Assembly: GCF_004010195.1 (NCBI RefSeq)
Contig: NC_057758.1
Location: 7,345,600-7,409,599 of the forward strand
Direction of reading: 5' to 3'
From: Chiloscyllium plagiosum
Lineage: Eukaryota
Length of the DNA stretch: 64,000 nt
A program made the translations under genes and the position numbers. A model generated the notes under the pieces. It worked only from the letters and a program-made list of their open reading frames with translations, was not told where the DNA came from and made no database searches. Shown piece after piece: positions 14,480 through 61,884 of this stretch (position 1 is its first letter; each line of letters opens with the position of its first letter).

Positions 14480-15355
14480 CCTCACTGCCTTGAGTATGAT
14501 GGGTGGGAGAGGTCAGCCCCAGAACCTGTTGCATACTCCCTTGTGGATGATTGGGGAGAGGACAGGGCAGACCCAGCTCCTGCTTCTCGCTCCCTTGTGG
14601 ATGATGGGTGGGAGAGGGAAGCACCGGATCATGTTGCACACTCCCTTGTGGATGGTCGGGAGAGAGGATAGGGCAGTCCGAGATCCTGTTGCACACTCCC
14701 TTATGGATGATGGGGGGTGGGGAGAGGACAGTCCCAGCTCCTGTTGCTCACTCCCTTATGAATGATGCGAGAGTGGAGAGGGCAGATCAAGCTCCTGTTG
14801 CTCACTCTTTTATGGAAAATGGGGGAGAGGGGAGGGCAGACCCAGCTCCTGCTTCTCGCTCCCTTGTGGATGATGGGTGGGAGAGGGCAGCACCGGATCA
14901 TGTTGCACACTCCCTTGTGGATGGTCGGGGGAGAGGATAGGGCAGTCCGAGATCCTGTTGCACACTCCCTTATGGATGATGGGGGGAGGGGAGAGGACAG
15001 TCCCAGCTCCTGTTGCACACTCCCTTGTGGATGATGGCGGAGGGAAGAGCGCAGTCTCAGGTCCTTTTGCTCACTCTCTTGTGGATGATGGGGAGGGGTT
15101 AGGGCACACCCAGCTCCTGTTGCTCATCCCTTATGGATGATGGGGGAGGGTAGAGGGCAGACCCAGCTCCTGTTGCTCACTCCCTTATGGATAATGGGGG
15201 AGGGGAGAAGGCAGACACAGCTACTGTTGCAAACTCCCTTGTGGATTATGGGGGAGGGGTGAGGACATTCCCAGCTCCTATTGCAAACTCCCTTGTGGAT
15301 GATAAGGGAGGAGAGATGGTAGTCCCAGCTCCTGTTGCTCATTCCCTTGTTGGGG
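14480..15355. repeat. ~59-60-bp minisatellite (cccttgtggatgatggggg...cccagctcctgttgctcact)
   Basis: About 15 units, with a higher-order block repeated at a 269-bp offset (14565 vs 14834). Confidence 0.9.
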
Positions 15356-15645: not shown

Positions 15646-16221
15646 TGTGGGATATAGGTAAAGCAGTGTTACTTCTGCAACCATAATTGCTTCTGCAAGG
15701 TAAATGAACTAACACCAGTGTATAATTGGTTCAGCCAAGAATGAAAACTATATAAAGGAAATTCATAATTGCTTTTCATCAACTGAAATGTGCATACAAG
15801 AATGAAAAGTGCCTGCAAGCAATGGAAGATGTTGCAGACGAACAGTTGAGATGCAAAGAACATTGAGTTATGCCAGACTCGGCACGTTGCCCTCATATAA
15901 GACTGAAACGAGCCAAGATAGTTACAGGATAAATAAGAGTGAGGGTCGTCCGGCTTGGAGTAGGGGACAAAGTAAACAAGGGCAGAGTGCACCTAGGTTG
16001 GGGCAGAACACAATAAGTAATATTGATAGGTTTGAAGCCAGTGAGGTAAACGGGGAAGTACCGTGACAGACTCAATTAAACTGTATAAATTGTGAAATAA
16101 TTTTGGGATCGGGATGCCTATTTGCTAGACACCCATCTTGCAAGAACGTCTCAATAAAATTCGCTGTTTCAGAATTTGTCTTGGGCTGATATTTATTATA
16201 TTGTGAGCTCTGTTTCTCACA
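15646..16221 (+). repeat. 5' LTR
   Basis: tgtggg...tttctcaca, with TATAAA at 16084 and AATAAA at 16153. Homologous to 23827-24429. Confidence 0.92.
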
Positions 16222-16223
16222 AT

Positions 16224-16242
16224 TAGGGCGCTCGTCCGGGGT
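16224..16242 (+). promoter_or_regulatory. Primer-binding site, tRNA-Pro-like (degenerate)
   Basis: tagggcgctcgtccggggt lies just after the LTR and resembles the canonical PBS-Pro tgggggctcgtccgggat. Confidence 0.75.
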
Positions 16243-16531
16243 GTCCATCATCACCAGCGGGATAGACACTGTCAATCGCTAGTAAGACGTGTCCCATTCC
16301 TTTTAGTATGATCCCATGATCCTCGGTGGTGGGTTCCTCCTTCTGGTTGACTGATCAAGATCCGATGACAGTCTATCTGAATCAGGCGAAAGGTTGCAAG
16401 TAGGTACAGGGAGACATCGAGCCAGGCAACTCCGTGCATGGACCAAGGAAGGAAAACTGACTTTTAAGTACTGCCTTGGTGGCTGGGATTGAGCTCTTGT
16501 AGTTACTAAGGGACTAACGAAGGAACTCAAT

Positions 16532-18200
16532 ATGGGCTATGCCGAGGGTAAGGTAAAAATCCCCGGGAAGAAAAAAGGAAATCGAAATGGAGGCTGGGTC
16601 TCTGAAAACAGACCTCAAGAAAGTCCATTGGGCAGGATGTTGTGGAAATGGAAAAATAATATTTGTACAAGGGGAAACGATAGGAAAAAGATGATTAAAT
16701 ATTGTTGCTTTGTATGGACTGAGGAATCCATTCTTCATCCCGCCGTTTTCTGGCCAAAATATGGGTCGGACTAAGACTATGCTTGTACATAGTTGAATTT
16801 ATATGTCAATGGAAATCAGCTTTACAGTCAGGAGGAATCAGATTATGCTTCGTGTCGGAAGGGCTATTAGCTGAAGGACTACTGAGGGTAAACATCGCAA
16901 CTAAGTCATGGCCAGACATCCGAAAAAGGTTAAAAAAAAATAGAGGGCTGGAGGGAGAAGCCTCTAGAGGAGATGTTGTGGGAAGTTCAGAAAGTGTCTG
17001 TGAGATATGGTGTGTGTGTGTGAGAGAGAGAGAGAGTGAGAAAACAGCTGGACAGCTAATAGAAAGTTTAACTCTTTGTGAATCGGTTTGAATGCACATT
17101 TGTGTGTTGGTGATTGAATGTTTGTGCTTTGTTCCCTGGAGCTTGAGATCCGGGACTGTTTCGAATCTGATTTCGATTGTGGAAATTTAACATGATTTCT
17201 TTTAAGGTTAAGGATTTTACATTGATTATGAAATAAAATTTTAACTCCAATTCTTTTTACAGGCCATGAATGCCTTACTATCAGTTTGTAACTAATCTCT
17301 TTTATCCTGACATAAAAGCGATTTATGGAGGACAGTTGAAGTCTCAGTTCAACATTTGATTGTAATAAATTAAAAAAAAATCCTATGGTTAATTCCTGTG
17401 TCCTTGGATTCGGCCATTATTCTTGCATTATATTTTTTTTAAAAACTTGAGCAGACAAATACTTTTAAGGTAGCTCCAGTTATTTTACGACCTATAGCAT
17501 TATAAGTGAGCAATGACTGGTCAGGACTACTTAAGAAAACTAATTTTGGATTTAAATTAAGGAACTAAAACCGGTAATTATAGTGGATTTCGAAGTTGGG
17601 AACTGGATGCATTTTATATTTTAAATGTTAAATACTGAATAAATGAATTTATATTATATAAATATACATTTACAAGTAAGATTCCAAAATGTATAGTTAG
17701 GAACAGGCTTTAACTTTAGACAAGTATAAATTGATGTATCGGTATTTGAGGTGACAGGGAGGAAGAAATATTGCAATATTTCTTTAAAAAATCCAGATCT
17801 GAGCAAAACATCGGTTGATGAAGAATGGCCTTTACGAGGCCCTAAAGCTGTTCAATTGGTTAAATCGGCTCAGCGATTGATCCGGCAACGTAACATGAGA
17901 AGCAGAAACTAAAGGCAAAAAATAATGATAGCCACGGTTGATAAGGTAATAAAGAGAAGGCCAAAACTAAAAGCAGAAGGAAACCGGAATGGTGGCGGGC
18001 AGCATGTTGAAAATAACGGGAGGAGAAGAGATCGGGGAGGAGATGTTAAGTGGTCCGGTGGACAGGAACAAGGATCGACGTGGAAATCCCCACAGGCGGG
18101 ATGTTATTACTGTGGAAAGACAGGTCACTTTCAAAGGGAGTGTCCAGATCTGAAAAAGGAAGCAAAGGCAGTACCGTTTATGAACCTTGATGAAGAATAG
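16532..18200 (+). pseudogene. gag: ERV gag, disrupted (internal deletion and insertion)
   Basis: MA: MGYAEGK...SPLGRML...KKMIKYCCFVW...FWPKYGS. CA end: TKSWPDIRKRL. NC: CYYCGKTGHFQREC. Ends EE-TAG-G, a readthrough-type junction. Confidence 0.9.
17008..17895. mobile_element. ~0.9 kb AT-rich insertion in gag, possibly an antisense solo LTR
   Basis: The Gag peptide breaks at ...QKVSVR and resumes at EKQKLKAK. The minus strand of the insert begins tgttacg. Confidence 0.5.
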
Positions 18201-20808
18201 GGGTTTCAGGGGCTCCTTACCCCTGGGGACCCACTAGAAACCCTTGAGAAATTTGTAGGTGGTACCTTAAAAAAAGGATGTAGTTTTCCGAATCGATACG
18301 GGGGCAGCACGGTCATACATAAATTTTAAGCCCAAGGGAGTTTAAATCTCGAAAAGACTATTAACTCTTTCGGGTGTAAAAGAGGAGGGATTTACAGTTC
18401 CAGTTTTTGAACGTAAAATAATCGAAAGTGGGAAAGATATAGTCTAAAGTGAAATGTTATATATTTTTGATATCGGAAGTAATTATTGTGGAGGGATTTA
18501 ATCATACTCCTACGCTGGAGATTGGAGTAAGGGACCAGAGATTAGTGATACAAATGGCCGTCCTGACCGAGGAAGCAGAGAAGGAAATAGAACCCAGAGT
18601 GTGGGCACGGGAAGAGAATCGCGGGGGATTACATCTACCTCCTTTGGAGATCAGTTTAAAGAGAGAGGGAGACGTGGTTTGCAAAAGTCAATATCCGATT
18701 TCAATAGAGTGACGCTAAAAACTGCAGCCAGTAATTGAGGAAATAATTAAGGATTGATTACTAGAGCCCTGCATGTCTCCTTACAATACCCCTATCCTGC
18801 CAGTAAAGAAATCGGATGATAGCTATCGCCTGGTACAAAAGACCTAAGCGCAATGAACCAAATAGTAAAAGCCCGCCACCCTGTGGTCCCTCATCCCTCT
18901 ACACTACTGAGTAAGATTCCCCACGGCCATAAATAGTTCAGTGTTGTGGATCTGAATGATGCATTCTGGGCATGTCCACTGCGGAGGGTGTAGGAATCTG
19001 TTTGCCTTCGAGAGGGAAGATCCAAAAACAGGGTAAAAACAGCAGTACAGACGGACGGTACTCCCACAGGGACTTACTGAATCCCAGAATCTCTTTGGTC
19101 AGGTGTTGGAACAGGTCTTGGAGAAGTTCAATAGCCGCAAAGGAACTACTCTGTTAAAATATGTAGATGGTCTTCTGGTAACAGGTGAGAAAAGGGAATA
19201 AAACAATAGAAGCCACAAACGAATTAGTAAACTTTCTAGGACAACAAGGATTGAGGGTCTCCTAGATTAAATTGCAATACGCAGAGAAGAAAGTCGGATA
19301 TTTGGGACACCTATTCAGTGAAAGAAAACGAAAAACAAGTCCAGAAAGAATTGAGGGAATTGTGGAAATGCAGCTGCCTAAAACCAAAAGAGAATTACGA
19401 AAATTCCTGGGATTAGCGGGGTACTGTAGATTTCGGATAGACTCATATGCAAAGAAAACAAAGAAATTATACTTGAAACTATTAGAGGAAGAATCTAAAT
19501 TATTGATTTGGCCAGAAGAAGGGAGGGAATTAGTTGAGAACTAAAGAGGAATCTAATCTATACCCCTGTTCTTGCATTACCTTGCCGAGACAAGCACTTC
19601 CATTTTTTGTTATGGTCGGCAGTAGAGTGGCTCGAGGGTCCTAACCCAACGATTGGGGGCGGGGAGGTGGGGGGGAAGAAGCAACCGGTTGCCTACTTGT
19701 CTAAATTATTAGACCCAGTCTCAAGCAGGTGACGGAGTGTGTGCAGGCAGTGGCAGCAGCAACCGTATTGGTATAGGAGAGTCGGAAACTTCCTTTTGGG
19801 GGATCCTTAATATTCACCACCCCATGTCAGATACGGACCATACGAACGCTGAAAGCAGGACGATGGCTCACAGACTCTCGGATATTTCAATATGAGGCAA
19901 TCTTAATAGAACAGAATGACCTTGTGTCAGTCAAAGACAGTTGCTTGAATCCAGCTGCATTTCATTGGCAGGGAGAGGGGGTGGCCCTTGGCAATCCAGA
20001 ACACAACTGCCTTGATATTATTGAATTGACTTAAGGGACGGACCGTTGCAGCTCGCTTGTTTATCGATGGGTCCCCCCAGGTGATTGAGGGGAAAAAGCA
20101 CATTGGATATGCTGTAGTACATGAGATAGACGAAAGCGTTATCGAGGCTGAAAGACTGCCTATCGGCTGGTCAGCCCAAACTTGTGAACTCTCTGCCCTA
20201 GAAAGAGCTCTCAGAGCCTTAGAAGACAAGGAGGCAAAGGTGTACACAGATTCCAAATATGCATTTGGAGTGGTACAAATCTTCGGAAAGGTTTGGCAAG
20301 AAAGAGGACTAACAAATAGAAGAGGAAAAGAACTAACGAATGAGGAATTGATAACCAAGTGCTGGAGTGTCTGTTACACCCGAGAGAAATAGCGGTAGTT
20401 CATATAAACGGACATCAGAAGAGGAATGAACTGGAAGTCAGGGGAAATAAACTGGCCGATGAGGCACCTAAAGAAGCAGCCCTGAATTCACAGGGAGCAG
20501 TAATGTACTCCTTAATACGTGCAATTCTACATCTTCATGGTGCCCCGTCGTTTATTGAAAAGGATGAAAAGGAACTAAAACATTTTGAAGCTGCAAAGAC
20601 AGCGGATGGGAGCTGGATGTTACCCGATGGGAGGGAAATGTTAAATAAAATGCGAGAAATTATGGCTGTCTTACATGGGGGGAGTCACTGGGGAGTGCAA
20701 GAAATGTGCGATTTAGTCTTAAGGAAATATGGATGCAAAGGGATATACACAATAACCAAACAGATCTGTGAGGGAATCATAAGATTTCTATATTATATAT
20801 ATATAATA

Positions 20809-20869
<61 letters not shown>

Positions 20870-21745
20870 AAGAAGGTATTAAGGAAACAAGTCCCAGGAG
20901 GGAGAGGATCTGGGATAAGGCCATTTCAGAGAATTAAAATAGAATTTTCCGAATTACCCCGATTGGGAAGACTGATGTATATGCTGGTAATGGTTTATCA
21001 CCTATCTAGAGGGGTGAAGGCGTACTCTTTAGTCACTGCCACCACAAGTGAGGTGTCCAAGATAATACTTGAACATATAATCCCCAGGTGCGGGATAGTG
21101 GAATGCATAGATTCAGGTCAGGGAACTCATTTTACTTCCAGGGTGCTCCAGAGAGTGGTGAAGGGGTGAGGAACCTCCTGGGAGTTCCACAGCCCTTGGC
21201 ACCCAACTTCATCAGGAAAGGTTGAGAGAATGAACCACATACTCTTTAAGCAATTATCTAAATTAATAGAAGAAACAAGACTCCCTTGGACTAAGTGTTT
21301 ACATATCGCACTATTGCGAGTGCGAACGGCCCCAAGGAAAGATATGGGGATGTCCCCTTATGAGATATTGTTTGGCCTGCCCTATCTAGTAAAGAAAGTG
21401 GAACTGGCCACTCCGGAGACTAAAGATTTGTTCTTAAAGAATTATATACTGGGCTTGTTCTCCTCTTTGCCCTTTCTCAGGAAAAAGAGTTTATTGGCAC
21501 AGACTACATCCCTTAAATTAACTGTACATCCGATCCAACCGGGGGATTGGGTTCGAGTCGAATCATGGACTGTGACCAAATTGCAACCAGAATGGGAGGG
21601 GCTGTACCAAGCATTCTTAACCACTGAAACCCCGATAAGAATGGCAGAGATAGTCGGATTAAAGGGCCAGTGGAATGTCCAGTTGAGAGAGAAGTCTGGA
21701 CATCCGAATCGACAAAAGAAATACTTAAACTTCAGCTAAAAAGAC
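18201..21745 (+). pseudogene. pol: ERV pro-pol (protease, RT, RNase H, integrase), many stops and frameshifts
   Basis: DTGA (~18295), SPYNTPILPVKK, LPQG (~19061), YVDG for YVDD (~19160), LRKFLGLAGYCR, FIDGS, YTDSKYAFG, HINGHQ, HGGSHWG, DSGQGTHFT, SSGKVERMN. A (TA)n expansion lies at ~20790-20866. Confidence 0.93.
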
Positions 21746-21839
21746 TTTAAATAACTGATTATGCAGTAGAGATGCGAGCGCGTGATATTTTCTGTAGTAT
21801 TGTATGTTAAGTGTCTCGGTGATTCAGCACCACTGTAGA

Positions 21840-23656
21840 ATGGGAAGAACGTTTAGGTACACTATATTAGCTTTTCTCATCATAGGATTCTATCAGGCTA
21901 TTGTGTCGTCGTCTTACTTAGTGACAACAGTTCCCGAAAGTACAAATCTACAAGTCATAGAAGCTTATACCTACAGTCTGGTGCATTGTGGAGATGTAAG
22001 AAATCTTAGGCAATGCAGCAACTCAGAAATACATCTTAGTTTCTATTAAAAAGGTCCCGAAAGGGGGGCATGGGATAAGACGAAAGGGAAGAAATGTCCC
22101 GGAGAGAGAAGTATAAGGGAAATCTTTGAGTAAAGAATGGCGGAGGCAGGAAGCCCTCAGAGTTGATCTCTTGATTAATCCACTCGTTACAATACACCAA
22201 GGCCCTTTCCGGCCAGCTCTGGCCTGTACAGATAAAAAGTGTAACCCAATATATTTACCAACAAAGAAAACCTCATGGTATGAAGCAGTTTTAGGGGGAG
22301 AAACCTATCAGGTCCAATTAGATCAAATATTTGGAATAGAGATGAAAGCAGACAGAAGAATTTCCTGGAATTTTGTTTTAAAATACAGGTGAAAGACAGA
22401 ACCCGATTAGGAAAAAGGAATAGCAGAGTCACTTACTCTGAGTCTAAGGTGATAAAAATTGTGGAGGTAAAGGACTTAAAGCAGACCATTGAAGTAGAAA
22501 CAGCTGGGATACTAATGCCTGGTTTGAATGGGTAAAGCGCACTGTGAAAAGTTTGCATAAAAGCAATTGGTGTGCATGCGCCTCAGGGAGACCAATGCCC
22601 CAAGTAGTCCCCTTTCCACTCGGCTGGAAGCGAGACAGGAGAGGTATGACATGCACGATATCCCTCTATCAGGGTGAGACGACAAGGACTAATAAATATT
22701 GTATTCCCTTTCTATGAAAGTTCCCTCTTTTAAAGAAGAAACGCTGAAAGACCCCACCACCTCCGCCCCACCACCATCGGAAATCACACATCGTGTGTAA
22801 ACAGGCGAGGAACAAATCGGTCCAGATATTTGGGGGAACTGAAAGCATGTGCCGAAATTCAGCACGTGTCCGAAAAGGGAGGGAAATACTCCGCATTAAG
22901 GATTCCCCGAGCGGATCTGTGGTGGTACTGCGGAGGGAAAATATTGAGACCCACCCGACCTATAGATTGGAGGGGCATGTGTGCAATTGTATAATTGGCA
23001 ATTCCGTTCACCTGGGCATTTAAAAAGAAAGAGATCGTAAAGGAAGGGGGACGAAGAAAGAGATCACGATTGGGTACTTCGTTTGTGAGTCCCAAGAGGG
23101 GTACCTGATGAGTTCAAGGCTCGTAACTAGATCACGGCAGGCGTTGAATCAGCACTGTTCTGATGGGTAACTGTCAGCAAAAATGTGGACTGGATAAATT
23201 ATATTTTCTACAATCAGCAAAGCTTCATCAATTACTCTAGAGACGCAATAAAAGGTATAGCCGAACATCTTGATGCAACTAGCAGAATGGCATGGGATAA
23301 TAGAATGGCCATAGGTATGACCCGAGCAGAAAAAAGCGGGAGTGTGTGTAATGTTAGGAGGGAGCTGTTGTATCTTTATTCCAAATAACCCTGCCCTAGA
23401 TGGGTCAACGACTCGAGCCCTGCAAGGTCTAACACGAGCGGAAGAACGAGCTAAACATTCAGGAGTCATCACATCATTGACTGGGTGGTTACAATTGTGG
23501 CTTGGAAAGTGGAGGGGTGTGGTGGTTTCAGTCCTTACCTCCATGAGCGTAGTGGTGGTCGTTCTAATCGCAATAGGATGCTGCATCATGCTTTGCGCAC
23601 GGGGGTTAATCAAAAGGTTGATTGAAACAGCTTTGGACATGCAAATGCCCCTATAA
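21840..23656 (+). pseudogene. env: ERV env (gamma-type, HERV-I/ERV-Pb-like TM), defective
   Basis: Hydrophobic leader (YTILAFLIIGF), degenerate CxxC (~22565), furin site RRKR (~23052), PDEFKARN, NVDWINYIFYNQQ, ISD-like WDNRMAIGM, CX6CC (CVMLGGSCC) and a TM anchor. Confidence 0.9.
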
Positions 23657-23809
23657 AGCGATCGGGGGGAAAGGGCTCTACCTGTTAAACAATTGAGGGA
23701 ATAAGTGACCGCGGGGAGATTTCCAAAATAAATGAAATTTCGGAGAAGATGCTGGTCAATTTGGAAGCGAGATATAAGAAAAAAATGCATAAGATAACAA
23801 ATGATAATT

Positions 23810-23825
23810 AAAGAAAAAGGGGAAA
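23810..23825 (+). promoter_or_regulatory. Polypurine tract
   Basis: aaagaaaaaggggaaa lies just before the 3' LTR. Confidence 0.9.
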
Positions 23826-23826
23826 T

Positions 23827-24429
23827 TGTGGGTTATGGTAAACCAGTGTTACTTCTGTAACCATAATTGCTTATTAACATCAGTATATAATTGTTTCAGC
23901 CAAACTAATAATTGCTTATTAAATAAAATAATTAACACAGGAATGAAAACTATGTGTAAGGAATACATAGTTACTTTTCATTAGTTAAAATGTGCATACA
24001 GGAATGAAATGTGCCTGCAAACAATGGAGGATGTTACAGACAAACAGATAAGGTGAAAAAGAACATCATGATATGCCAAGCTCAGCACATTTCCTTCATG
24101 ACAGCATGAAAGCGAGCCAAGCCACTTAGAAATAAGGGACAGGATAAATACGGGTGAGGGTCGCCCGGCTTGGTGCAGGGGGAGAAGTAAACAAGGGTGG
24201 AGTGCAGCTAGGTAGGGGAAGATCACAATAAGGAATATTGATTGGTTTGAAAGCCAATGAGGTAAACGGTGAAGTATCGGGAATGAAACTGCATAACTTG
24301 TTGACTAATTTCTGGATTAGGGTGCCTACTTATTCGCAACCGTCCTTGCAAGAACGTTTCAATGAAATTCGCTGCTTCAGAATTTGACTCGGACTGAAAT
24401 CTATTCTATTGTGAGCTTTGTTTCTCACA
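23827..24429 (+). repeat. 3' LTR
   Basis: tgtggg...tttctcaca. The poly(A) signal position reads aatgaa. Confidence 0.92.
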
Positions 24430-29625: not shown

Positions 29626-32175
29626 GAATGTTACTTGTTTTTTTTGTCAACCCAAGCCCTGCACATTATCCAAATCTTGCTGCATTTGCGAATGAAATCC
29701 TTTCGTATCTGATTATTTGTGCTGTCTTCAGTAAACATTTCCATCCCTGGACCGTTAGTGGAGGGAAGCTCATTGATGAAACAATTGAAAATGTTTGGGT
29801 CTGGAACAGATTCTCACAGACATCCAGCTATATGTTAAGAAGCTGAGAAAACCAACTTCCAAACACGACAACCAACATCCTATTTACGAGGTAACCCTCA
29901 GCCCAGTGAAGAGGCGTCCCTCTAAATAATATCTGAAATGGAACAGGAATACGCCATCCACTCCCTCAAGCCTGCTATACCATTCAATCGGATCACCTCT
30001 GATCCAGTATTGTTCACATCCACGTTTCTACTCTTTCCTCTTTACCCTTGATTCAGTCACAGAACAAGAACTAACTCTTTCAGCGTGTAATAATCACAAA
30101 GGCTCTGTCCCCACACCTCTGTTTGTCACGCTGATACAAAGACTCTCAACTCTCTGAGAGAATAAACTCTTGCTCAACTCAGCCTGAAATTATTGCTTCT
30201 TTATTCTGCGTTTTACCCTCTTGTCCTAAATTCTCCTCTTGACGGGATACATCGTTCACCCATTTACTCTGTCCAGCCATTTACGATTCCGAGCTTTCTT
30301 TCATCCTGAAGACACGCAAGTTACTTTGGACTACGGTTTTCTGGAGTTGTGTCGATTTAAGTATTATTCTGTTCTTTAGTTCTCACTTCCAAAATGTGCA
30401 AGTTATCATTTTCTCACATTATACTCCATTGACGTCTGTATTATTCGGCTCCTCTGATGTCACATTACAACAGAAGTGACCGTCTAATGGAGGGCATTTA
30501 CTCTTACTTCAACTCTTTTTCTGTGTTTAGACCGACGTTGCAATGACGTCAGGAGCTGCGTGAGTCTTGAAGAACGCAACCTGAACTGTCTTGTGTCTAA
30601 TGCTGAGGAAGTGCGGCCTGATTACTCTATCACGTCCACTACCATCATTTTGCCAATGATCAAGATTTAACGAACAAGACAGAGCAGGACAAATATCCAA
30701 CTTGTCGAATAGATGTTAATGGTGTAACTCGACTGAAGCAGCTTGACTAGAAGACACGGAAAATATGGAGCACACTGAATCACTTGTGTTGGTGGATCGT
30801 AGCCTGCATCCTTTGCAGTATCCATTACCACCTGCTGTTTCTCAATAAGCACTTTTGGGGAAGATAGAGATTGACCAACCCCTCAACAGTTCTGGCTGAA
30901 GGTTGTTACAATTGCTTCAAACTTGTCCTTTGTACCATTCGATTACCTTCTCCCATCAATGGAAATGGCGATACTTGTGCAACAATTGGTGCCAATGTTG
31001 AAATGTTCTTCATTTTTAATACTGCCTATTATATATCTGCTTTGCTCACTTCGCTCTGTCTATCTGGCGTTGCGTATAATTAATTCCTGATTCAACGTCT
31101 TAATATTCCCATGCATCAACTGTCCGTGGCCCCTCGTTATTCGTCATCCTGTGTTTGGAACGTGCTTTCTCCATAGACGTTATGAATATGTGCTGAACAT
31201 CTTCTACATGTTGCACGTTGCTGCGGATGTGTATTGGAGGTGGAGTGAATATGTGTTTATTTCTAACTATTAAGAGATCTGCTTTACTGTAGATGGTGTC
31301 ACGCTTCTTAAGAGTTGTTGGAGCTGTACAAATTTAGGCAAGTCGAAAGTATTCCATCATACTCCTGACTTGGGGATGATAGGCCTGAGCGAATCGGGAG
31401 ATGAGCAACATGCTTGGTCTCTGCCCCTGAACCATCGAATTTCTTTGCTGAGTCCATTTCAATTTCTCGACAATGGTAATCCCCAAAATGTTGTTAGTAG
31501 CCGATTCAGTGATGTCGATGTTGTTCAAATGTCAAGGTGTCAGATTCTCTTTGATTGCAGGTGACGATTGTTGGCACCTTCTGGCGCAGATACTACCTGC
31601 CACTTTTCAGCACAAGCCTACTTGTTGTCCAAATCTTACTGCATTTGTATATTGAGCTCCTAGCTCAGCAAACCTTCCGGGTTCATTTACCCTCAGCGAT
31701 TCCAAATGAGCGATTCCATCTTTACAAATCCCCAACCACCCTCTGAGAAGCGCCGATGTCAATTAAACAAAACAACCGTCGAACGTGACCATCTCCATGC
31801 AAACGTAGCATGCTATTGGAGAAAATGAAATGCAGAGGAAGCTCGATTATCTGAAGACACGGGTGAGGAGAATTTTGTTCAGTTCATTGAATGCCGGAGA
31901 ACAGTTTAGTCAAGCATTGCGACCATGCAATCTTACCGGATAGTCCCATATTCGGATAATGGAATGCCGGATAATTGAGGTTCCCATTTCAGACTAAACA
32001 ACTTCTACCTTCCAAACCTTTCTTCCTTCTCTGCTTCACTGGAAGCAAAGGTGAGGGTGGCCAGTCCAGCAGAAAGAAACCCTCTGGCTGTCCACTTCAC
32101 CCACTGGCAGGATCAACAAAATTCAGTCCTGAACATGATGAGCAGCAGCACCTAAAGGAGAACACACTCCTGCAG

Positions 32176-33249
32176 TCACTGGTGATCTCGCTGGTGTTCC
32201 TGCAGGCTGGATACTCGAGTGTATCACTTCCCGCACTGAGAGTAGGTGAGTGGCCTCTCGCCGGTGTGAAACCGCTGGTGTCTCTGCAGGTTGGATAATT
32301 GAGTGTTACTTCCCTCACCGAGAGCAGGTAAACGGCCTCTCTGTGGTGTGAAGTCGCTGGTGTCAGTCCAGATGGGATAATTGAGTGTATCCCTTCAAGC
32401 ACTGAAAGCAGGTGAACGCCCTCTCCCTGGTGTGAATCCGCTGGTTTGTCTGCAGGTTGGATAATCGAGGTAACTTCTTTCTGCACAGAGAGCAGCTGAA
32501 CGGCCTCTCCCCGTGTGAACTCGCTGGTGTGTCTTCAGATGGGATAATTAAGTGAATTCCTTCCCACTCTGAGAGAAGGTGGGTGGCCTCTTCCTGGTGT
32601 CAACACGCTGATGTCTCTGCAGGCTGGATAATTGAATGAATCCCTTCCCACATTGACAGCAGATGAACGCCCTTTTTCCGGTGTGAATCCGTTCATGTCG
32701 TAGTATGGCGTACACATCCGAGAATCTGTTCCCACAGTGAGGCAGGGAAAAGGCCCCTCGCCAGTGTGAAGCCGTTGGTGAATAAACAAGCTCGATTACT
32801 GAGCGAATCCTTTCCCACACTGAGAGTAAGTGAACAGTCTCTCGCCAGTGTTCATCCGGTGGCGAATAACCAAGCCAGACGGCTGATCAAATCCTTTCCC
32901 ACACTCAGAGCAACACTACGACCTCTCCTCAGTGTCAACTCGCTTGTGACTCCGCACGTTAGCTGAACTTGTGAATTCCATCCCACAATCAGAGCAGGGG
33001 AATACGCTCTTGCTTGTGCGCCAACGGTGTGGATGTATCAGTGAGTCTCTTCCCACGGTCAGAGGTGCATAGCCTCTGCACAGCGTGAAATTTCTGGTGT
33101 GACAGCAGATTGGAGATAGCACAGAATCCTATCTCACTCACAAAACAGGTGAATGGCCTCTCCACCGTGTGACTGCGCTCATGAATCTCAAGAGCAGATG
33201 ATTAATAGAATCCCTTCCCACAGATCTCACATTTCCAGGGTTTATCCAT
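32176..33249 (-). pseudogene. Tandem C2H2 zinc-finger gene (~12-13 fingers), pseudogene
   Basis: Starts MDKPWKCEICGKGFY*. An 84-bp periodicity with HTGE(R/K)PF linkers, e.g. HERIHTGKRAFICCQCGKGFIQLSSLQRHQR. Multiple stops, frameshifts and lost Cys/His residues. Confidence 0.9.
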
Positions 33250-33370: not shown

Positions 33371-35993
33371 AACTTGTCCACCCCTCTCACCTACTCCAAC
33401 CTCTCACGCTCACAACTTGCAGCCCTCCACTCCCTCTGCTCCAACCCCAACCTCACTATCAAACCGGCAAACAAGGGAGGCGTAGTGGTAGTTTGGCACA
33501 CTCATCTTTACATTGCTGAGGGTAAACGCCAGCTCGCGGATATCTCCTGCTACTGCCCCTTGACCATGACCCCACCTCCCAACAACAAACCATCTCCCAG
33601 ACAATCCATAACCTCATCACCCCATGGGATCTCCCATCCACCGCCTCCAACCTCATAGCCCCACAACCCCGCACCGCCCGTTTCTACCTCCTGTCCAAAA
33701 TCCACAAACCTGACTGCCCCGGCCGACCATTGTCTCAGCCTGCTGCTGCCCCCACCTACGTTCGGGACACCACACACGCCCTTCACCTACTCCATGATTT
33801 TTGCCTCCCTGGCCACCAACGCCTTATCTTCACCATGGACATCCAGTTCCTAGACACCTCCATCCCCCATAACGAAGGCCTCAAAGCCCTCCGCTTCTTC
33901 CTTTCCCGCCGACCCAACCAGTACCCTTCCACTAACACCTTGCTTCGACTAACCGAATTGGTCTTCACGCTGAGCAACTTCTCTTTCTAATCCTCCCACT
34001 TCCTCCAAACCAAAGGAGTAGCCATGGACACCCGCATGGGCCCCAGCTATGCCTGCCTCTTCGTCGGATATGTGGAACAGTTCATCTTCCGCAACTACAC
34101 TCGCACCAAACCCCACCTTTCCTCTGCTACATTGATGACTGTATCGGCGCTACCTCGTGCTCCCACCAGGAGGTTGATCAATTCATCCACTTTACTAACA
34201 CCTTCCACCCCGCCCTCAAATTTACCTGGAACGTCTCAGGCTCCTCCCTCCACTTCCTAGACCTCGCTGCTGCCCCCACCTACGTTCGGGACACCACACA
34301 CGCCCTTCACCTACTCCATGATTTTTGCCTCCCCGGCCACCAACGCCTTATCTTCACCATGGACATCCAGTTCCTAGACACCTCTATCCCCCATAACGAA
34401 GGCCTCAAAGCCCTCCGCTTCTTCCTTTCCCGCTGACCCAACCAGTACCCTTCCACTAACACCTTGCTTCGACTAACCGAATTGGTCTTCACGCTGAACA
34501 ACTTCTCTTTCTAATCCCCCCACTTCCTCCAAACCAAAGGAGTAGCCATGGGCACCCGCATGGGCCCCAGCTATGCCTGCCTCTTCGTCGGATATGTGGA
34601 ACAGTTCATCTTCCGCAGCTACACTCGCACCAAACCCCACCTTTTCCCCTGCTACATTGATGACTGTATCGGCGCTACCTCGTGCTCCCACCAGGAGGTT
34701 GATCAATTCATCCACTTTACTAACACCTTCCATCCCGCCCTCAAATTTATCTGGAACGTCTCAGGCTCCTCCCTCCACTTCCTAGATCTCTCCATTTCTA
34801 TCTCGGGCAACAAACACAACACGGACATTTGCTACTAATCAACCGACTCCCACAACTTCCTAGATTACACCTCCTCCCACCCTGCCCCCTGAAAAGACGC
34901 CATCCCACATTCCCAATTCCTCCCAGGAGGACCAACTCCAATACTGAACAACACAGATGACCTCCTACTTCACAGACCACAATTTCCCCTCAGACGTGGT
35001 TGACGATGCTCTCCAACTCATCTCCTCCACTTCCCGCTCCTCCGCCCTTAAACACCGCCCCTCCAATCGCCACCTGTACGGAACCCCACTGGTCCTCATC
35101 TACCACCTACCAACCTCCAGAAACATGGTACCATCCTTTGACATTTCCGCCACCTCCAGACAGACCCCACCACCAAGCATATCTTTCCCTCTCCTCCCCT
35201 CTCAGCGTTCCGGATGGACCACTCCCTCCACGACCCCCTCGACAGGTTCTCCCCCCACCATTCCAACCTCCACTCCCGGCACCTTCCCCTGCAACCGCAA
35301 GAAATACAAAAATTGCCTCCACACCTCCCCCTCACTTCCCTCCAAGGCCACAAGGGATCCTTTCATATCCGTCACAACTTCACCTGCACCTCCACACGCA
35401 TCATTTACTGCATCCGGTGCACCCGATGTGGCCTCCTCTATATTGGGGAGACAGGCCGCCTACTTGTGGAACGTTTCAGGGAACACCTATGGGATCCCCG
35501 CACTAATCAACCCAACCGCTCCGTGGCGGAACACTTTAACAACCCCTCCCACTCCGCCAAGGTCATGCTGGTCCTTGGCCTCCTCAATCGCCAGTCCATG
35601 GCAACACGACGCCTGGAGGAAGAGCGCCTCATCTTCCACCTTTGAAACCTCCAACCACAAGGGATGAATTCAGATATCTCCAGCTTCCTCATTTCCTCTC
35701 CTCTCCAACTTATCTCAGTCCCAATCCTCGGACTCAGCACTGCCTTCTTGACCTGCAACCTTCTTCCAGACCTCTCCGCCCCCACCCCCTCTCCGGCCTA
35801 TCACCCTCACATTAACCTCCTTCCACCTACCGCATTCCCAACGCCCCTCCCCCAAGTCCCTGCTCCCTACCTTTTACCTTAGCCTGCTTGGCACACCTTC
35901 CTCATTCCTAGGGAAGGGATTCTGCCCGAAACGTCGATTCTCCTGCTCCTTCGATGCTGCCTGACCTGTTGCGCTTTTCCAGCAACACATTTT
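33371..35993 (+). mobile_element. Penelope-like retroelement (RT plus GIY-YIG), 5'-truncated, with an internal ~524-bp duplication
   Basis: IKPANKGG, FTMDIQ, MGTRMGPSYACLF, YIDD, IYCIRCTRCGLLYIGET, VAEHFN. TSD taaggctgttttc at 33358-33370 and 35994-36006. Confidence 0.93.
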
Positions 35994-36006
35994 TAAGGCT
36001 GTTTTC

Positions 36007-36329: not shown

Positions 36330-38950
36330 TACCGCATGGTCGAATGCTTCTTATGGAGTCGTTCAGATGTCCAACATGAAAACAAATCTTTCTGGCCAGC
36401 TCGTCAATGCTGACCAGATAATTCAAACGAATTGACTCCCATTTGCCTGCACCTTGCCCATATACCTGTAAATCCTTCCTATTCATGTCCCATCCAAATG
36501 TCTTTTAAATGCTGCAACTGTGCCAGGTTCCACCACTTCCTCTCGCAGCTCATTCCATATGCACAGCACCGTCTGTGTGAAAACGTTGCCCCTTAGGTCC
36601 CATCTATACCTTTCCCCTCGCAGCCGAAACCTATGCCCTCTAGTTCTGCAATCCCCCACCCCACCCCTTGTCTATTTATCTTATCCATGCCCCGTGTAAT
36701 TTTATAAACCATTCCAAGTTCGCCCCTCAGCCTCCGAAGCTCCAGGAAAAAAAGCCGTAGTCTCTTCACCCTCTCCCTATCGCTCTAAACCTCCAACCTT
36801 GGCACATCCTTGTAAATCGTTCCTGAACCCTTTCAGGTTTCACAGCATGTTTCTGATAGGAAGGTGACAAAAATTGCATGCAATATTCTAAACTTGGCAT
36901 AACCAATATCCTGTAGAGTCGCATCGTGACCTCCCAACTCCAATACTCAATGCTTTGACCAATAAAGCAAAGCCCTTTCACTGTTCTGTCTACCTGCGGC
37001 TCTACTTTGTAGGAGCTACGAACCTGCAAACTTACGAATTATACGTCCCATGTTCACATCCAAATCATTCATATAAATAATGAAAAGTAGTGGACCCTGC
37101 ACTGATCTTTGCGTCGCTCCACTGGTCACGAGGCCTCCTGCCTGTAAAACAACCCTCCACCACCGCCCTCTTCGAACCAGTTCTTTATCGAAATGCCTAG
37201 TCCTCCCTGTTTTCCATGAGATCTAACCTTGCTAACCAATCTCCCATGGGGAACCTTTTCGAACGCCTTCCTGAAGTCCATACAGATCACATCTACTGCA
37301 CTGCCCACATCAATCCTCTTTGTTATTTCTTCAAAAACCTTAATTATGTTTGTGAGACATGATTTCCCACGCACAAAGCCATGCTGACTATCCATAATCA
37401 GTCCTTGCTTTTTAAATAAATGTAAATTCGGTGCCCTCCACCGATGCCAAGCTCACTGGTCTAAGGTTCCCTGGTTTTTCCTTACCACCTTGCTTAAAAC
37501 GTGGCACCATATTAGTCAACCTCTGGTCTGCCGGCACCTTACCTGTGACTATCTATGATACAAATATCTCAGCAAGGGACCGAACAATCACTTCCCTAGC
37601 TTCCCAGATATCTAGGGTACACCCTGGGGATTCTTGGGGATTTATCCACCTTTCTGCATTTCAAGTCAATAAATACCTCCTCCTCTATAATATGAACATT
37701 TTTCAAGATGTCACCATCTACTTCTCCACATTCTATATCTTCCATGTCTTTCTCCACAGGAAACACTGGTACAAAATACGTAGTGAATATCTTCCCAATC
37801 TCCTGCGGCTCCAAACGAAGACTGTCTTGCTGATCTTTGAAGGGCACTATTCTGTCTATAGTTACCCTTTTATCCTTAATGTATTTATAACAACCCTCTG
37901 GATTCTCCTTAAGCCTAATTGCCAAAGCTATTTCTCTAGCCATCCAGCATTCCCTGGACCTACCTGCTTTTCCTTTCACCCTAATAGGAATATACTCCCT
38001 CTCGGTATCTCATTTCTGAAAGCTTCGCATTTTCCAGCTGTCCCTTTACCTGCGAACATCTGCCCCCCTCCCCACCGCACCACACCCAAATTGGTTTTTG
38101 AAAGTTTTTGCCTAACACCCTCAAAATTGGCCTTCCTCCAATCTAGGCCTTCAGCTTTCAACCTTTTCCATAACTATTTTAAAACTAATAGAATTATGGT
38201 CGTTGGCCTCAAAGTGCAGCCCCAATGACACCTCAGTCACCTGTTCTACCTTATTTCTCAAGAGTGGGTCAGGTTTTGCACATTCTCTAGTAGGAACAGC
38301 CACACACTGAATCAGAAAGTTTTCTTGCACGCTCTTTCCACATTCCTCTCTTTCAGAACCCTTCACACTATGGCAGTCCCAGTCTATGTTTGTAAATTTA
38401 AAAGTCCCTACCATAACCACACTATTATTCTCAGAGATTATTGAAAATTCTTTACAAATTTGTTTTTCAATTTCCCACTGACTATTAGCGGGTCTATGTT
38501 TCAATCCCAATAAGGCGATCATCACTTTCATATTTCCCAGTTCCATCTAAATAATGTCACTGGATGTATTCCCAGGAGGATCCTAAGTACAGTAAGTAAC
38601 GCTATCCCTTATAAACATTGCTATACCTTCCCGCCTCCCCCCCTCATCTTGACCCCATTTCCAGCCATCCTAAAGCATTTTGTAGCCTGGAACATTAAGC
38701 TGCCAGTCCTATACATCCCCGAGTCACGTTTCTGTAATGAATATGCTATCCCAGTGCTATGTTCCTCATCATGTGCTAATTTCATCTGCCTTCCCTTTTA
38801 GGCCTCTTGCATTGAAGTAATTGCAGTTTAAGTTATCAGTCCAGTCTTGTTCTCTGCTTGGTTCCTTCCTGCCCTGAAATTTTGACTTGCTTCATTTCCC
38901 AACCAGACAAGTCTTAGACTGATCTCTTTCCTCACTATCGCCCTGGGTTC
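36330..38950 (-). mobile_element. CR1 LINE ORF2 (endonuclease plus RT, with deletions)
   Basis: VVMVGTFKFTNIDW, NDHNSISF, SQHGFVRGKSCLTN, MDFRKAFEKVPH, MRLYRILVMPSLEYC. Confidence 0.9.
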
Positions 38951-40195
38951 CCCCACGCAGCCACCCTCCCGCCCCGCACCCATGCAAGTCCTTAATGGAG
39001 TGGGAGGGAGAGATAAAGTGTTCAGCTACAAATCTTTTAGCCATGTCCTGAAGCAGAGTCGCTACCACAGCCGCATCATCTTCCTCAGTGCCTGCCTACT
39101 GATTCCGTATGGACTCCTGATACCGCACAGTGTCTGAACACTTCAACTCCCCCTTCACTCCACCAAGGACAAGTACGTCCTGGGTCTCCTCCATCGCAAA
39201 ACCCTAACCACCCGACTCTTGGAGGAAGAATGCCACATCTTCCGCCTTGAATCCTACAACCACACAGAATTAATGTGGATTTCACCAGCTTCCCCTTCCA
39301 TCAGGTTATCTCAGTCCAAGCATCCAACTCGGCACTGCCCTCTTGACCTGTCCATTTTCTTTTCCATGTATCCACTGCATCCTCCTCTCCAATCGATCAT
39401 TTTCTGCTTCACCTTCATCTACCTCTCACATTGTTACCAACCTTCCTCCAGCCCCAATACCGTCCCATTTATCTCTTAGCCCCGCGACCCACGAACCTCG
39501 TTCTTGATTGCAGTTTAAGTTATCAGTCCAGTCTTGTTCTCTGCTTGGTTCCTTCCTGCCCTGAAATTTTGACTTGCTTCATTTCCCAACCAGACAAGTC
39601 TTAGACTGATCTCTTTCCTCACTATCGCCCTGGGTTCCCCCACGCAGCCACCCTCCCGCCCCGCACCCATGCAAGTCCTTAATGGAGTGGGAGGGAGAGA
39701 TAAAGTGTTCAGCTACAAATCTTTTAGCCATGTCCTGAAGCAGAGTCGCTACCACAGCCGCATCATCTTCCTCAGTGCCTGCCTACTGATTCCGTATGGA
39801 CTCCTGATACCGCACAGTGTCTGAACACTTCAACTCCCCCTCTCACTCCACCAAGGACAAGTACGTCCTGGGTCTCCTCCATCGCAAAACCCTAACCACC
39901 CGACTCTTGGAGGAAGAATGCCACATCTTCCGCCTTGGATCCTACAACCACACAGAATTAATGTGGATTTCACCAGTTTCCCCTTCCACCAGGTTATCTC
40001 AGTCCAACCATCCAACTCGGCACTGCCCTCTTGACCTGTCCATTTTCTTTCCCATGTATCCACTGCATCCTCCTCTCCAACCGATCATTTTCTGCCTCAC
40101 CTTCATCTACCTCTCACATTGTTACCAACCTTCCTCCAGCCCCAATACCCTCCCATTTATCTCTTAGCCCCGCGACCCACGAACCTCGTTCTTGA
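38820..40195. repeat. Near-identical tandem duplication (~687-bp unit) spanning a CR1/Penelope junction
   Basis: attgcagtttaagttatcag occurs at 38820 and 39507, and both copies end gaacctcgttcttga. Confidence 0.92.
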
Positions 40196-44369: not shown

Positions 44370-46590
44370 CTACAATGCAAGAACAGGCCGTTAGGCCCTC
44401 CAAGCCTGCGCAACCATACCAATGCAATCTTCCCTTACAGGGTCCGTATACCTCCCCTCTCTTCCTATCGATGTGCTTCTTGAATGATTCCATTGTGTCA
44501 GCTTCCACCACCTCCTCTGGCTACAGCCTCCAGGCACTCAACATCCTTTATGTGAAAACAGGCCTCACGCAATTCTTTTAAACGTCCCCCACCTCATACC
44601 TTGAAACTGCGTGGCCTAATAATTGATCACCTCCACCCCGGGAGAAAAGCTCATTTTCCACTCTATCCATGCCATTCCCAATCTTGTAAACTTCTATTAG
44701 ATTGTCCCTCAATCTCCTGCGATCCAGTGAAAACAAACCTCGTCTCGCCAAACTTGCTCTATCGCTAAAATCTGCCACAGCACACAGCATCCTGGTAAAC
44801 GTTTTCGGTATCCTATCCAAAGGATCCACATCCTTCGGATAGTGTGGAAGCAGAGCTGTATGCAATATTTCAAGTGTGGCCTAATTTAAGCTGCAGCATA
44901 ACTTTGTCGAAGAGTGTGGTGCTGCAAAAACCCCAGACAGTCAGGCTGCGTCCGAGGTGCAGGAGAATCGATGTTTCGGGCATGGGTCCTTCATCAGGCT
45001 AGTGGACCAAAGGGGCAGAGAGATAAATGGGAGTTCTATGTGTCTGGGTGGGTGGGGGAGGTAGCTCAGAGTGCGATAGGCAAAGTGGGAGTGAAAACGA
45101 AAGGTCGGAGGGGGATTGGGGTCGATTGGTGGGAAGGAAGATGGCCAGGTGGGACAGGTCAAGAAAGCGGTGAAGAGTTGGAGGGATGGATCGGGGATAA
45201 GGTGGGGGAGGGAAAATAAGGGAACTGGTGAAATCCACATTGATCCCGTGTGGTTGTGGGGTCTCAATGTGGAAGATGAGGCATTCTTCCTCCAGGTGTC
45301 TCGTGGTTAGGGTTTGGCGATGGAGGAGGCCTAGGGCTTACATGTCTTTGGCGGAGTGAGTGTAAAAGTTAAAGTGTTCGACCACGAAGTGGTGGGGTTG
45401 GTTGATGCGGGTGTCCCAGAGATGTTCTCTGAAATCTTTCGCAAGTTGGTGTCCTGTCTTCTCAATGTAGAGGAGACCACATCAGGAGCAATGAACATGA
45501 ACATGTGTGGAAGTACAGGTAAATCTCTGTCAGATGTGAAAGGATCCTTCTGGACCTTCGACGGAGGTAAGCAAGGAGGTGTGTGTGCAGTATGTGCAAT
45601 TCTTGCCTTGGCTGGGGAATGTGCCTGGGCTGCAGGGTGGGATGGTGGGGTGGGGGTGCTTGGACTTAACAAGTGGGTCGCGGAGGGAATAGTCTTTACA
45701 GAAGGCAAAAGGAGTGGGCAAAATATCCCTGGTGGTAGGGTCTGTGTGAAGGTGGTAGAAATGGTGGAGATGTATCTGGAGGTTGGTGAGCTGGAAGGTG
45801 AGGGCTGGCGGGGTTCTGTTGTTGCAGGTGGAAGGGTAGTGTTCAAGGGCGGAGATGTGGGAAGTGGATGAAATGCACTAGAGGGCATTGTCGGCCACGT
45901 AGAAGGGGAAATTGTGGTCTTCCTCCCAACAGCATAACTTGGCTATCCTTATCCTCAATGTGCCGACAGTGATGGCAAGCATACCCTAAGCATTTTTCCC
46001 AACTACCTTATTTACCTGCGCTGACATATTCAGTGATCTGTGGACTCACACACCCAGACCCCTCCGCAAATCCATACTCCGAAGGATTCAGATATCCACT
46101 CTATAATTTCCACCTGCAGTTGACCTTCCAAAATGCATCACGACACATTTCACAGGATTAAACACCATCTTCCATTTTTTCTGACCGTGCCTCCAACTGT
46201 TCGGTATCCTCCAGTATCCTCTGACAATCCTCCTCACGATCTGCAGCTTCACCAATCTTTGTATCGTTTGCAAACTTACTAATTAGACCAGCTACATTTC
46301 CCTCCAAATCATTCACGTAGATCAAGAACAGCAGAGGTCTAATCGCCAAACCCTGTGGAATACCACCAGTGAAAACTATCCATTGTGGAAAGCATTTTTC
46401 CATCGCTACCCTGTTTCCTCCAACCAAGGCAGTGCTGGATCTATCTTGCCAGCACTCTCCGATTCCATGTGATGCCAACTTTTGTACCAGTCTGCCATAA
46501 GGGACCTTATCAAAGGCTTTACCGAACTCCATTTGAACAACGTCAATTACCTTTCCCTCATCAAACATCTTCACCACCTACTCAAAAGGA
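44370..46590 (-). mobile_element. CR1 RT/3' end, split by a Penelope insertion
   Basis: GKAFDKVPYGRL, GIPQGLAIRPLLF, ISKFANDTKIG, FSLDRRRLRDNL. Confidence 0.85.
44905..45929 (-). mobile_element. Older Penelope-like element (GIY-YIG end)
   Basis: KDYSLRDPLV...GTFP...CTYCTHT. Flanked by TSD cagcataactt (44894-44904 and 45930-45940). Confidence 0.85.
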
Positions 46591-48830: not shown

Positions 48831-48879
48831 GCGTCATGGTTGAAACTGCCGCCGCGACGTTGTCCGCCTCAACCTGTCC

Positions 48880-55649: not shown

Positions 55650-56850
55650 CTAATGGAGGGCGGGGTTTGGGAAAATGGGGGCGTGGGAGTAAGGTACTAG
55701 GTGTTGTGGTGGGGGCAGAGATAGAGTGCACGGTGCATGGCATTGTAGTTGGAGCAGGACTAAAGTTGCACTGGGTGTAGCATTGTAGTTGGAACAGGAC
55801 TTTGGATGCGCTGGGCAGAGCAGAGAGTTTGGGAGAGGTGTGTGGGGAGCAGCGGGCTGTGCACAGTGTTTGGGGTGGAGTTTGGGATTGACTGGGCGTG
55901 TCACAGTGTTTGGATGGGGTTTGGAGTGTGCTGAATGGGGCACGGTGTTTGGGGGTTGTTTGGGTGTGCTGGGTGGGACCCAATGTTTCTATCAGATTTC
56001 GGTTGTGCTGTGGTACAGCACACTGCGACTGGGTTTGGGGTGTGCTGGCGGGGCACAGAATGCGGGAAGGGATTTGTGGTTTACTGGACGGGGTACAGTG
56101 TTTGGAATGGTGTTTGGGGTGCGCTGTGTGGGTCACAGTGTTTGGGATAGGGTTTGCGCTCTGCTGGGTAGAGAACAGTGTGTGGAATGCGGTTTGGGGT
56201 GCGCTGAGTGGGGCACAGTATGTGGGAAAGATTTTGGGGTCTGCTGAAAGGGGCATAGGGTTGGGACAGGGTTTGGGATGTGCTGGGCGGGGCATAGCAT
56301 ATGGCGGCTCAGCGTGGGGTGTGCTGGGCGGGGCACAGTGTCTGTTGGGTGTTTGCGGTGTGTGGGGCGGGACACAGTGTTTGAGGGTGGAGTTTGGAGT
56401 GTGCTGGATGGGGCACAGTGTTTGGGCGTGGGGTTTGGGATGAGCCGGGCGGGGAACAGTGTTTGTGGGCGGTGTTTGCGGTTTGCTGGGCGGGGCACAG
56501 TGTTTGGGCGTTGGAGTTTCTGGTGTGCTGGTTGGGGCACAGTGTTTGGGGGTGGTGTTTGCGGTGTCCTGGGTGGGGAACAGTATTTGGGGTGGAGGTT
56601 GGGGTGTGCTGGGCGGGGCACAGTTTGGGGTCGGGCCTTGCTATGTGCTGGACGGGACATCGTGTTTTGGGGTGGAGTTCGGGGTATGCAGGGCAGGGCA
56701 CAGTGTTTGGGGTGGAGTGTGCGGTGTGCTGGGCTGGACACAGTGTTTGGGGTCGGGTTTGGTGTTGAAGATTGGGGTATNNNNNNNNNNNNNNNNNNNN
56801 NNNNNNNNNNNNNNNNNNGGGTACAGTAGTGAGGGCGGAGTTTGGGGAGT
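55650..56850. repeat. G/T-rich ~38-40-bp minisatellite (gtgtgctgggcggggcacagtgtttgggg)
   Basis: Many tandem units running into an assembly gap. Confidence 0.9.
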
Positions 56851-58099: not shown

Positions 58100-58174
58100 T
58101 GGTAATTGCGTGGGATTGAACCCACGACCTTGGTGTTATTAACACCACGCTCTAGCCATCTGAGCTGACCGATC
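58100..58174 (-). tRNA. tRNA-Ile(AAT), degenerate, probably a pseudogene
   Basis: GATCGGTCAGCTCAGATGGCTAGAGCGTGGTGTTAATAACACCAAGGTCGTGGGTTCAATCCCACGCAATTACCA. Anticodon and T arms pair; the acceptor stem is broken. Confidence 0.8.
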
Positions 58175-58232
58175 AATGCAATCCAACAATCACCGACCAA
58201 CGATCTCGGTATGTCCTCAGAGGAAGCGAGAT

Positions 58233-61874: not shown

Positions 61875-61884
61875 CTGGCCAACA

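Follow-up and report, generated by a model that had tools for sequence, protein, structure and literature searches.

A 64,000-nucleotide stretch of the Chiloscyllium plagiosum genome (contig NC_057758.1, forward-strand positions 7,345,600 to 7,409,599; hereafter the window, whose own numbering is used throughout) carries a retrovirus-like element of ~8.8 kb at 15646-24429, and raises the question of which retroviral lineage left such a sequence in a cartilaginous fish. The boundaries found are exactly those proposed in an earlier sequence-based note on this DNA (the original prediction). With a probability of about 0.8, the element is the now dead remnant of a single old integration in which a class I retrovirus belonging to the HERVIPADP (HERV-I/ChiRV1-like) lineage entered the germ line of a shark, probably a carpet shark.

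The organisation is that of a provirus, with two direct long terminal repeats (LTRs) of the TG...CA type, a primer-binding site, a purine tract and genes in the order gag-pro-pol-env (Table 1). Both LTRs start with TGTGGG and end with CTCACA. They are identical in 455 of 552 aligned columns, with 8 gap openings, and the 97 differences (56 transitions and 41 transversions) give a Kimura two-parameter distance of 0.20, i.e. 0.10 per LTR. The start of the 5' LTR has outside support, as 84 contigs from sequencing run X9 and 25 from run X20 terminate at 15645/15646. Beyond that point the contigs carry unlike flanks, whose mutual agreement is only 0.35-0.40, as expected from many separate insertions; the family is multi-copy and occupies many insertion sites.

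Table 1 Features of the endogenous retrovirus in the window.
Feature	Position	Strand	Remarks
5' LTR	15646-16221	+	576 bp, TG...CA; TATA-like 16084-16089; AATAAA 16153-16158
Primer-binding site, tRNA-Pro-like, degraded	16224-16242	+	15/17 aligned bases
gag matrix region	16532-16864	+	Met-Gly start, 2 stops; 63% identity over 81 residues to armadillo Gag P0189
Deletion junction	16855-16867	+	~900 nt lost (late-domain region and most of capsid); P0189 residues 106-407 unmatched
Capsid C-terminal remnant	16867-17005	+	one frame change; matches P0189, P0055, P0063, P0195
AT-rich non-coding insert	17006-17890		~885 bp; repeated DNA, with poly(A)-ended transcripts from other parts of the genome
gag C-terminus	17913-18200	+	one CCHC zinc knuckle (PF00098, E 5e-07), TAG end
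Protease remnant	18232-18495	+	5 stops in 88 codons
pol (reverse transcriptase, RNase H, integrase)	18560-21740	+	stops and frame changes, reverse transcriptase catalytic motif damaged; collinear with P0002
(TA)40 microsatellite	20789-20866		within integrase region
env (surface and transmembrane subunits)	21855-23653	+	immunosuppressive domain and CX6CC, 4 stops, at least 6 frame changes; collinear with P0191 residues 10-590
Polypurine tract	23810-23825	+	purine tract before 3' LTR
3' LTR	23827-24429	+	603 bp

The lineage of the element was addressed with a tree of the reverse transcriptase (RT) containing 33 rows, namely 32 chosen sequences, two of them partial, and the window. The window adjoins P0002 (72% identity) and shares a 13-row clade (support 100/100) with four rows from a swallow, one from a stingray and one from the little-skate cluster. 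Within this clade, a subclade of 6 rows (86/91, unstarred) unites the window with the two named cartilaginous-fish rows. The walleye virus WEHV1 is placed outside the 13-row clade, together with rows that, from their motifs, we take to be cat murine leukaemia virus (MLV)-like, class III-like and gypsy-like. A quicker first tree of 99 rows, for which 101 of 194 proteins covered 230 or more of the 271 RT columns and 3 duplicates were removed, recovered the same clade as 18 rows with a support of 100. The terminal RT branch is 0.36 for the window and 0.083 for its sister.

Most of the class I endogenous retroviruses (ERVs) described from fish are epsilon-like, including two elephant-shark lineages (PMC4422223, PMC4977317), which speaks for an epsilon-like ERV, or else a gypsy element, as an alternative. 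The RT tree contradicts both, and an approximately unbiased (AU) test rejected a topology in which the six rows were forced to group with WEHV1 and its sister (p-AU 2.4e-5, for a group chosen after the tree had been seen). The Pol relative P0002 is 34.6% identical to WEHV1 as against 55-61% to the swallow elements, and it scores 564 bits with the solved RT/RNase H p80 chain 4mh8, presumably that of MLV, as against 121 with Ty3. An epsilon or gypsy identity is refuted under the model used and is hardly tenable. A scan of viral contigs with P0002 yielded 5 pattern matches, of which none was confirmed.

Comparison with the human groups of Vargiu 2016 (PMC4724089) narrows the placement. Pol similarity is the main grouping criterion in that work. 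Over a 69-residue RT piece the window agrees with the HERVADP consensus at 44 positions and with HERVIP at 43 (~63%, counted by hand), and among 25 of 39 LPQG passages the same downstream signature occurs only in HERVADP and HERVIP. The matrix (MA) motif is present in the Gag consensus of both groups, and the Env region spanning the immunosuppressive domain and CX6CC fits HERVADP_a best. According to Vargiu 2016 (PMC4724089), the HERVIP primer site is of the P or I type (P first) and that of HERVADP of the F or H type, A content exceeds 31%, and the HERVIP_a Env is tied to ERVPb1 and the HERVADP_a Env to chicken ChiRV1. The shark element has one zinc finger, a primer site that resembles the tRNA-Pro site given in the supplement, and 32.6% A.

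Because the Gag, RT and Env motifs match the human HERVIP/HERVADP consensus sequences, the placement near HERV-I holds, and a class I, HERV-I-like (HERVIPADP supergroup) assignment is supported over an epsilon or gypsy one by the RT tree, the AU test and the motif matches. This bears out the class proposed in the original prediction, which had named RT grouping with epsilonretroviruses or gypsy as the outcome that would overturn it; no such grouping was seen in the RT tree. Its narrower label, HERV-I/ERV-Pb, is right at the level of the supergroup. On Env the closer human match is HERVADP rather than ERVPb1/HERVIP_a, and the primer site is Pro-like rather than Ile-like.

The relatives of the coding regions are spread over fish, birds and mammals. 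The pro-pol region is collinear with the 1163-residue P0002 over 18286-21649, and env over 21855-23653 with P0191, a 626-residue protein of Chiloscyllium punctatum. The best matches of the window Env, four in all, are two C. punctatum proteins followed by duck and nighthawk, and the transmembrane subunit (TM) piece is 82% identical to P0191, 75% to duck and 78% to nighthawk; for the P0191 TM the values against these two birds are 80% and 78%. These values, together with the 63% identity of MA to armadillo Gag, are what might be expected if the contig contained DNA of a bird or mammal or were chimeric through misassembly. However, the nearest Env and the named Pol relatives come from sharks, a skate and a stingray, and contigs from three coded organisms occupy every one of the 30 bins of the stretch, those of the flanks among them, mostly at less than 95% identity, so that a foreign or chimeric origin is very improbable.

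Six Leucoraja erinacea Pol records of 882 residues that were compared are 99.5-99.9% identical to one another, and four C. punctatum Env records of 626 residues are 94-99% identical; because of this high mutual identity, the skate and bamboo-shark bursts are much younger than the element described here. Both clusters (P0003 for the little-skate Pol and P0191 for the C. punctatum Env) are annotated only as NYNRIN-like or uncharacterised. The P0189 cluster comprises 43 near-identical Gag-like records of Dasypus novemcinctus under many LOC identifiers, whose MA is 63% identical to that of the shark element, and represents an expanded HERVIPADP-like gag family in the armadillo. In Hemiscyllium ocellatum, one fucolectin-like isoform (P0190, XP_060681258.1) opens with 24 residues, of which 23 are identical to the MA encoded at 16691-16762. 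Together with the C. punctatum Env matches, this match points, indirectly, to a shark and probably a carpet-shark host. The other isoforms of this gene are shorter, suggesting that an ERV supplied the first exon at a different locus; the fucolectin exons are not in the window, so the chimeric gene model belongs elsewhere.

The genes themselves are extensively decayed. Stops occupy 14 of 1053 pro-pol codons and 4 of 537 env codons (18 of 1590 together), with at least 9 frame changes in pro-pol and at least 6 in env, at least 15 in all. Pieces of the element matched the Pfam families zf-CCHC, RVT_1, RNase_H, Integrase_H2C2, rve and MLVIN_C. A retroviral family was found at E<0.1 in 7 of the 18 pieces scanned, with zf-CCHC and RNase_H alone above the curated cut-off. 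The match to MLVIN_C, the GPY/F-type integrase C-terminus, has an E of 6.6e-06 and is below that cut-off. No dUTPase family was among the Pfam matches of the element pieces and their relatives. The WENR-type immunosuppressive domain is decayed in the window env and clear in its nearest relative, P0191, while the CX6CC motif can be recognised near 23340-23370. Every gene is broken; no functional viral protein can be made from the element, which is best regarded as a fossil marker.

The original prediction of a complete LTR-to-LTR architecture is therefore correct for the order and presence of the parts, as remnants, and not for their completeness, as most of the capsid is deleted and all the genes are broken. 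The single CCHC knuckle and the Env CX6CC that it listed are both there. The UAG that it placed at the gag/pro junction is present at 18198-18200, although the protease match now lies in another frame of this copy and in-frame read-through is not evident. A hairpin 3' of this codon was considered as a read-through signal and dropped, being no better than shuffled sequence (z -1.11; 31 of 200 shuffles equally good).

In gag there are both a deletion and an insert. Residues 25-105 of the armadillo Gag P0189 align to 16613-16855, and the next aligned residues, 408-453, begin only 12 bases further on, at 16867-17005. Of the 196 residues in the Gag_p30 match of P0189, 152 fall within the ~300 absent codons (~906 nt). 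From 17006 to ~17890 nothing matches Gag, and translation in six frames gave no credible Pfam family; a sub-threshold Imm50 match (E 0.028) was obtained in one of them. The element appears normal in length because the deletion and the insert are of nearly the same size. At 17180-17240 and 17716-17791 the insert is matched by RNA reads of run X21 that end in poly(A); it holds the 3' ends of repeats that are transcribed elsewhere.

Rather than being damage to this copy, deletion and insert might together characterise a non-autonomous subfamily that intact relatives copied in trans. One X9 contig, from another organism, crosses the junction of the insert and the nucleocapsid region (17674-18131, differing at 64 of 458 letters), and in each of the three DNA-type runs contig depth, when summed, exceeds that over RT several-fold across 16354-18321. 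The contig may, however, come from the orthologous locus, and summed contig depth is not copy number. Part of the insert is moreover a repeat of high copy number to which poly(A)-ended RNA reads map, as a later insertion would give, and the deletion junction is crossed by no contig among the 15 of 207 joints listed. A non-autonomous subfamily is on this evidence unlikely, and the preferred reading is that the provirus was altered after it had integrated.

Among the 24 rows listed by a search of sequencing runs, 20 hold part of the stretch and none holds half of its words; no RNA run is listed as a holder. In the single-cell RNA run X21, of which ~2% was read, 804 reads align, 3 of them at 99% or more, and 78% continue into unlike sequence; these reads are from other copies and say nothing on the expression of this locus. 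An X2 contig matching 15370-15669 with 12 differing letters was not used as evidence of orthology, as it enters the LTR by 24 bases, fewer than the 31 set for bridging.

The extent of decay was estimated in two ways. The first is half the LTR distance, 0.10. In the second, stops were simulated in the internal genes, with piece limits set by eye and starting codons that were already mutated; a mean of 17.6 was obtained at a distance of 0.10 against the 18 observed, and the 95% ranges include 18 for distances of 0.08-0.15. Both point to a decay of ~10% per site, and hence to an old, dead insertion.

The LTR pair could be misleading if the element were a mosaic, with LTRs drawn from different subfamilies or loci by recombination or gene conversion, in which case it would be younger than their divergence implies. 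The lack of a visible target-site duplication and the 8 gap openings, several of them long and mostly within the U3 part, are in keeping with such an origin, as are X9 contigs that switch LTR type (joints 15710-23881 and 24212-16016), U3 duplications that vary among copies, and the uncomfortably old dates given by published shark rates (460 million years (Myr) at 2.2e-10). On the other hand, LTR identity is fairly even, at 0.76-0.92 per 90 columns, and the stop density of the internal genes independently fits a decay of ~0.10. Because this agrees with half the LTR distance, one old integration is favoured, and a mosaic is considered quite improbable.

Conversion of the LTR divergence to years is loose. 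Estimates are 46 Myr at a mammalian rate, 101 Myr at 1e-9, ~200 Myr at 0.5e-9, the catshark rate in PMC10699275 (our own arithmetic), and 460 Myr at the 2.2e-10 assumed in Han 2015 (PMC4422223). The epaulette-shark pedigree rate (PMC10587355) gives 72-723 million generations. As the oldest dates are hard to credit, either the rates over long periods are higher or the LTRs already differed in part before integration; for the second of these, the U3 variation and the switching of LTR type among other copies provide evidence. At shark rates an age of ~100-200 million years or more is possible.

Several observations weigh against the interpretation of the locus as one old HERVIPADP-like integration. 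No target-site duplication is visible (0/4, 3/5 and 1/6 bases agree at the LTR flanks; it may have decayed or been lost), so it is not proven that the two LTRs arose together. Where the 13-row clade meets the other gamma-like rows, the node has a support of only 90/94, unstarred, and is partly open. The link to HERVIP, HERVADP and ChiRV1 comes from motifs in the supplement, the rows of the tree being without a named human HERVIP/ADP or ChiRV1. The flanks on both sides carry motifs that we take to be those of a LINE (long interspersed nuclear element) endonuclease region, and the 3' flank agrees at 69% with a further copy at 38162-38426; a LINE identity depends on these motifs and this match, as Pfam gave no match in any of the six frames of the flanks.

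In the living virus, to judge from the family, reverse transcription would have been primed by tRNA-Pro. As in gamma-like retroviruses, Gag-Pol would have been made by read-through of the gag UAG, and the Env would have been of the gamma type, with the surface subunit and TM disulphide-linked via CX6CC. The pattern of decay suggests that a germ-line integration, apparently into a LINE remnant, was followed by neutral mutation to ~10% per site, and that after integration most of the capsid gene would have been lost and the 885-bp insert and the microsatellite gained.

Retroviruses of this broad kind have been reported from cartilaginous fish before. Han 2015 (PMC4422223) refers to an ERV of the lemon shark that is a close relative of a human ERV, and from the elephant shark describes only epsilon-like and SnRV-like elements. 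Chen et al. (bioRxiv 2021.11.23.469661) found ERVs with a gamma-type Env in 6 species of cartilaginous fish, and gamma-related class I lineages, among them ERV-GA.a-Cpu and ERV-GA.a-Ara, whose structure is that typical of gammaretroviruses. They give consensus sequences in their S4 Data and report 46 orthologous groups in Chiloscyllium. The suggestion in the original prediction that the lineage may be undescribed is consequently weak. No paper devoted to a shark HERVIPADP provirus was found in a literature search that was without most subscription journals, Dfam and Repbase.

Among known systems, the element is most like HERVIPADP (HERVIP/HERVIP10, i.e. 'HERV-I' with LTR10, and HERVADP) in its MA, RT and Env motifs, its one zinc finger, Pro-type primer site and A-richness, the lack of any dUTPase seen, and its MLV-type integrase C-terminus. 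Unlike the human members it resides in a cartilaginous fish, is ~63% identical in the RT piece and has lost most of its capsid; its LTR divergence of 0.20 is at the top of the 10-19% human range, in a slower-evolving host. It resembles ERV-GA.a-Cpu and -Ara, whose hosts would be a bamboo shark and a skate if the abbreviations are read correctly, in its gamma-related Pol, gamma-type Env, host class and gammaretroviral layout, a likeness drawn from their description only; the best Env matches of the window are C. punctatum proteins, in keeping with ERV-GA.a-Cpu. In contrast to those consensus lineages this copy is heavily decayed, and it quite possibly belongs to a lineage to which Chen et al. 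have already given a consensus. The unnamed annotated relatives (skate Pol, C. punctatum Env, Hirundo rustica Gag-Pol and Dasypus Gag) belong to the same clade and have collinear domains, and unlike the window element they retain long open frames. The elephant-shark CmiERVs are also two-LTR elements of a cartilaginous fish, but they are epsilon- or SnRV-like and their LTR divergence is 0.024-0.033 as against 0.20 here (PMC4422223). The lemon-shark ERV is, like the present element, a HERV-related retrovirus in a shark, but is cited as a single sequence, whereas here a two-LTR element with env is present. The lemon-shark sequence is presumably a pol fragment.

Elsewhere in the window, a 54-bp minisatellite of ~16 copies with a 269-bp higher-order period lies at 14483-15350, 300 bp upstream of the 5' LTR. 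A decayed, frameshifted C2H2 zinc-finger array with 84-bp spacing occupies 32171-33008 on the minus strand. RT-bearing element copies at 33800-36000, 45200-46000 and 47000-50900, with an inverted pair whose 861-nt arms are 87% identical (RVT_1 E 1.8e-4), have motifs that we take to be those of Penelope-like elements. Rfam gave only two tRNA-like matches, both outside the retroviral element: a tRNA-Ile(AAT) call at 58101-58175 (-) and a match at 53162-53243 (-), both low-scoring and possibly pseudogenes or heads of short interspersed nuclear elements. Near-perfect tandem duplications at 38820-40136 (period ~687 bp, 97-100%) and 58233-58911 (~379 bp, 98%) are recent or assembly artefacts, and long degenerate tandem arrays are found at 51-2460 (32-33-bp units), 55829-56765 (40-bp) and 61852-64000 (33-bp).

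As a single locus the element matters little, since the copy is dead and its virus group is already on record from sharks. Together with its skate, stingray and bamboo-shark relatives, however, it adds to the later evidence against the view that the gamma-containing clade infects amniotes only (Xu et al. 2018). What interest remains lies in its possible age and in the 78-80% TM identity between the shark relative and bird Envs. It may be, though we hold this to be rather doubtful, that the element, as a single integration 100-200 million years old or more, is among the oldest two-LTR retroviral fossils in cartilaginous fish, and that a HERV-I/ADP-like lineage has been present in sharks and rays since the Mesozoic, with reinvasion. 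Its elasmobranch branch would then be the sister group of the members in birds and mammals, or the stock from which these came. If so, this shark lineage would long predate the 30-40 Myr primate HERVIP insertions, the young skate and bamboo-shark copies would represent continued reinvasion, and the lemon-shark sequence would no longer be read as a stray cross-species jump. Should orthologues confirm a Mesozoic age, the locus would serve as a calibration point, setting a lower bound on the age of the HERVIPADP lineage and providing neutral sequence against which to test shark substitution rates over long periods, the published figures for which yield ~200-460 Myr for this LTR pair.

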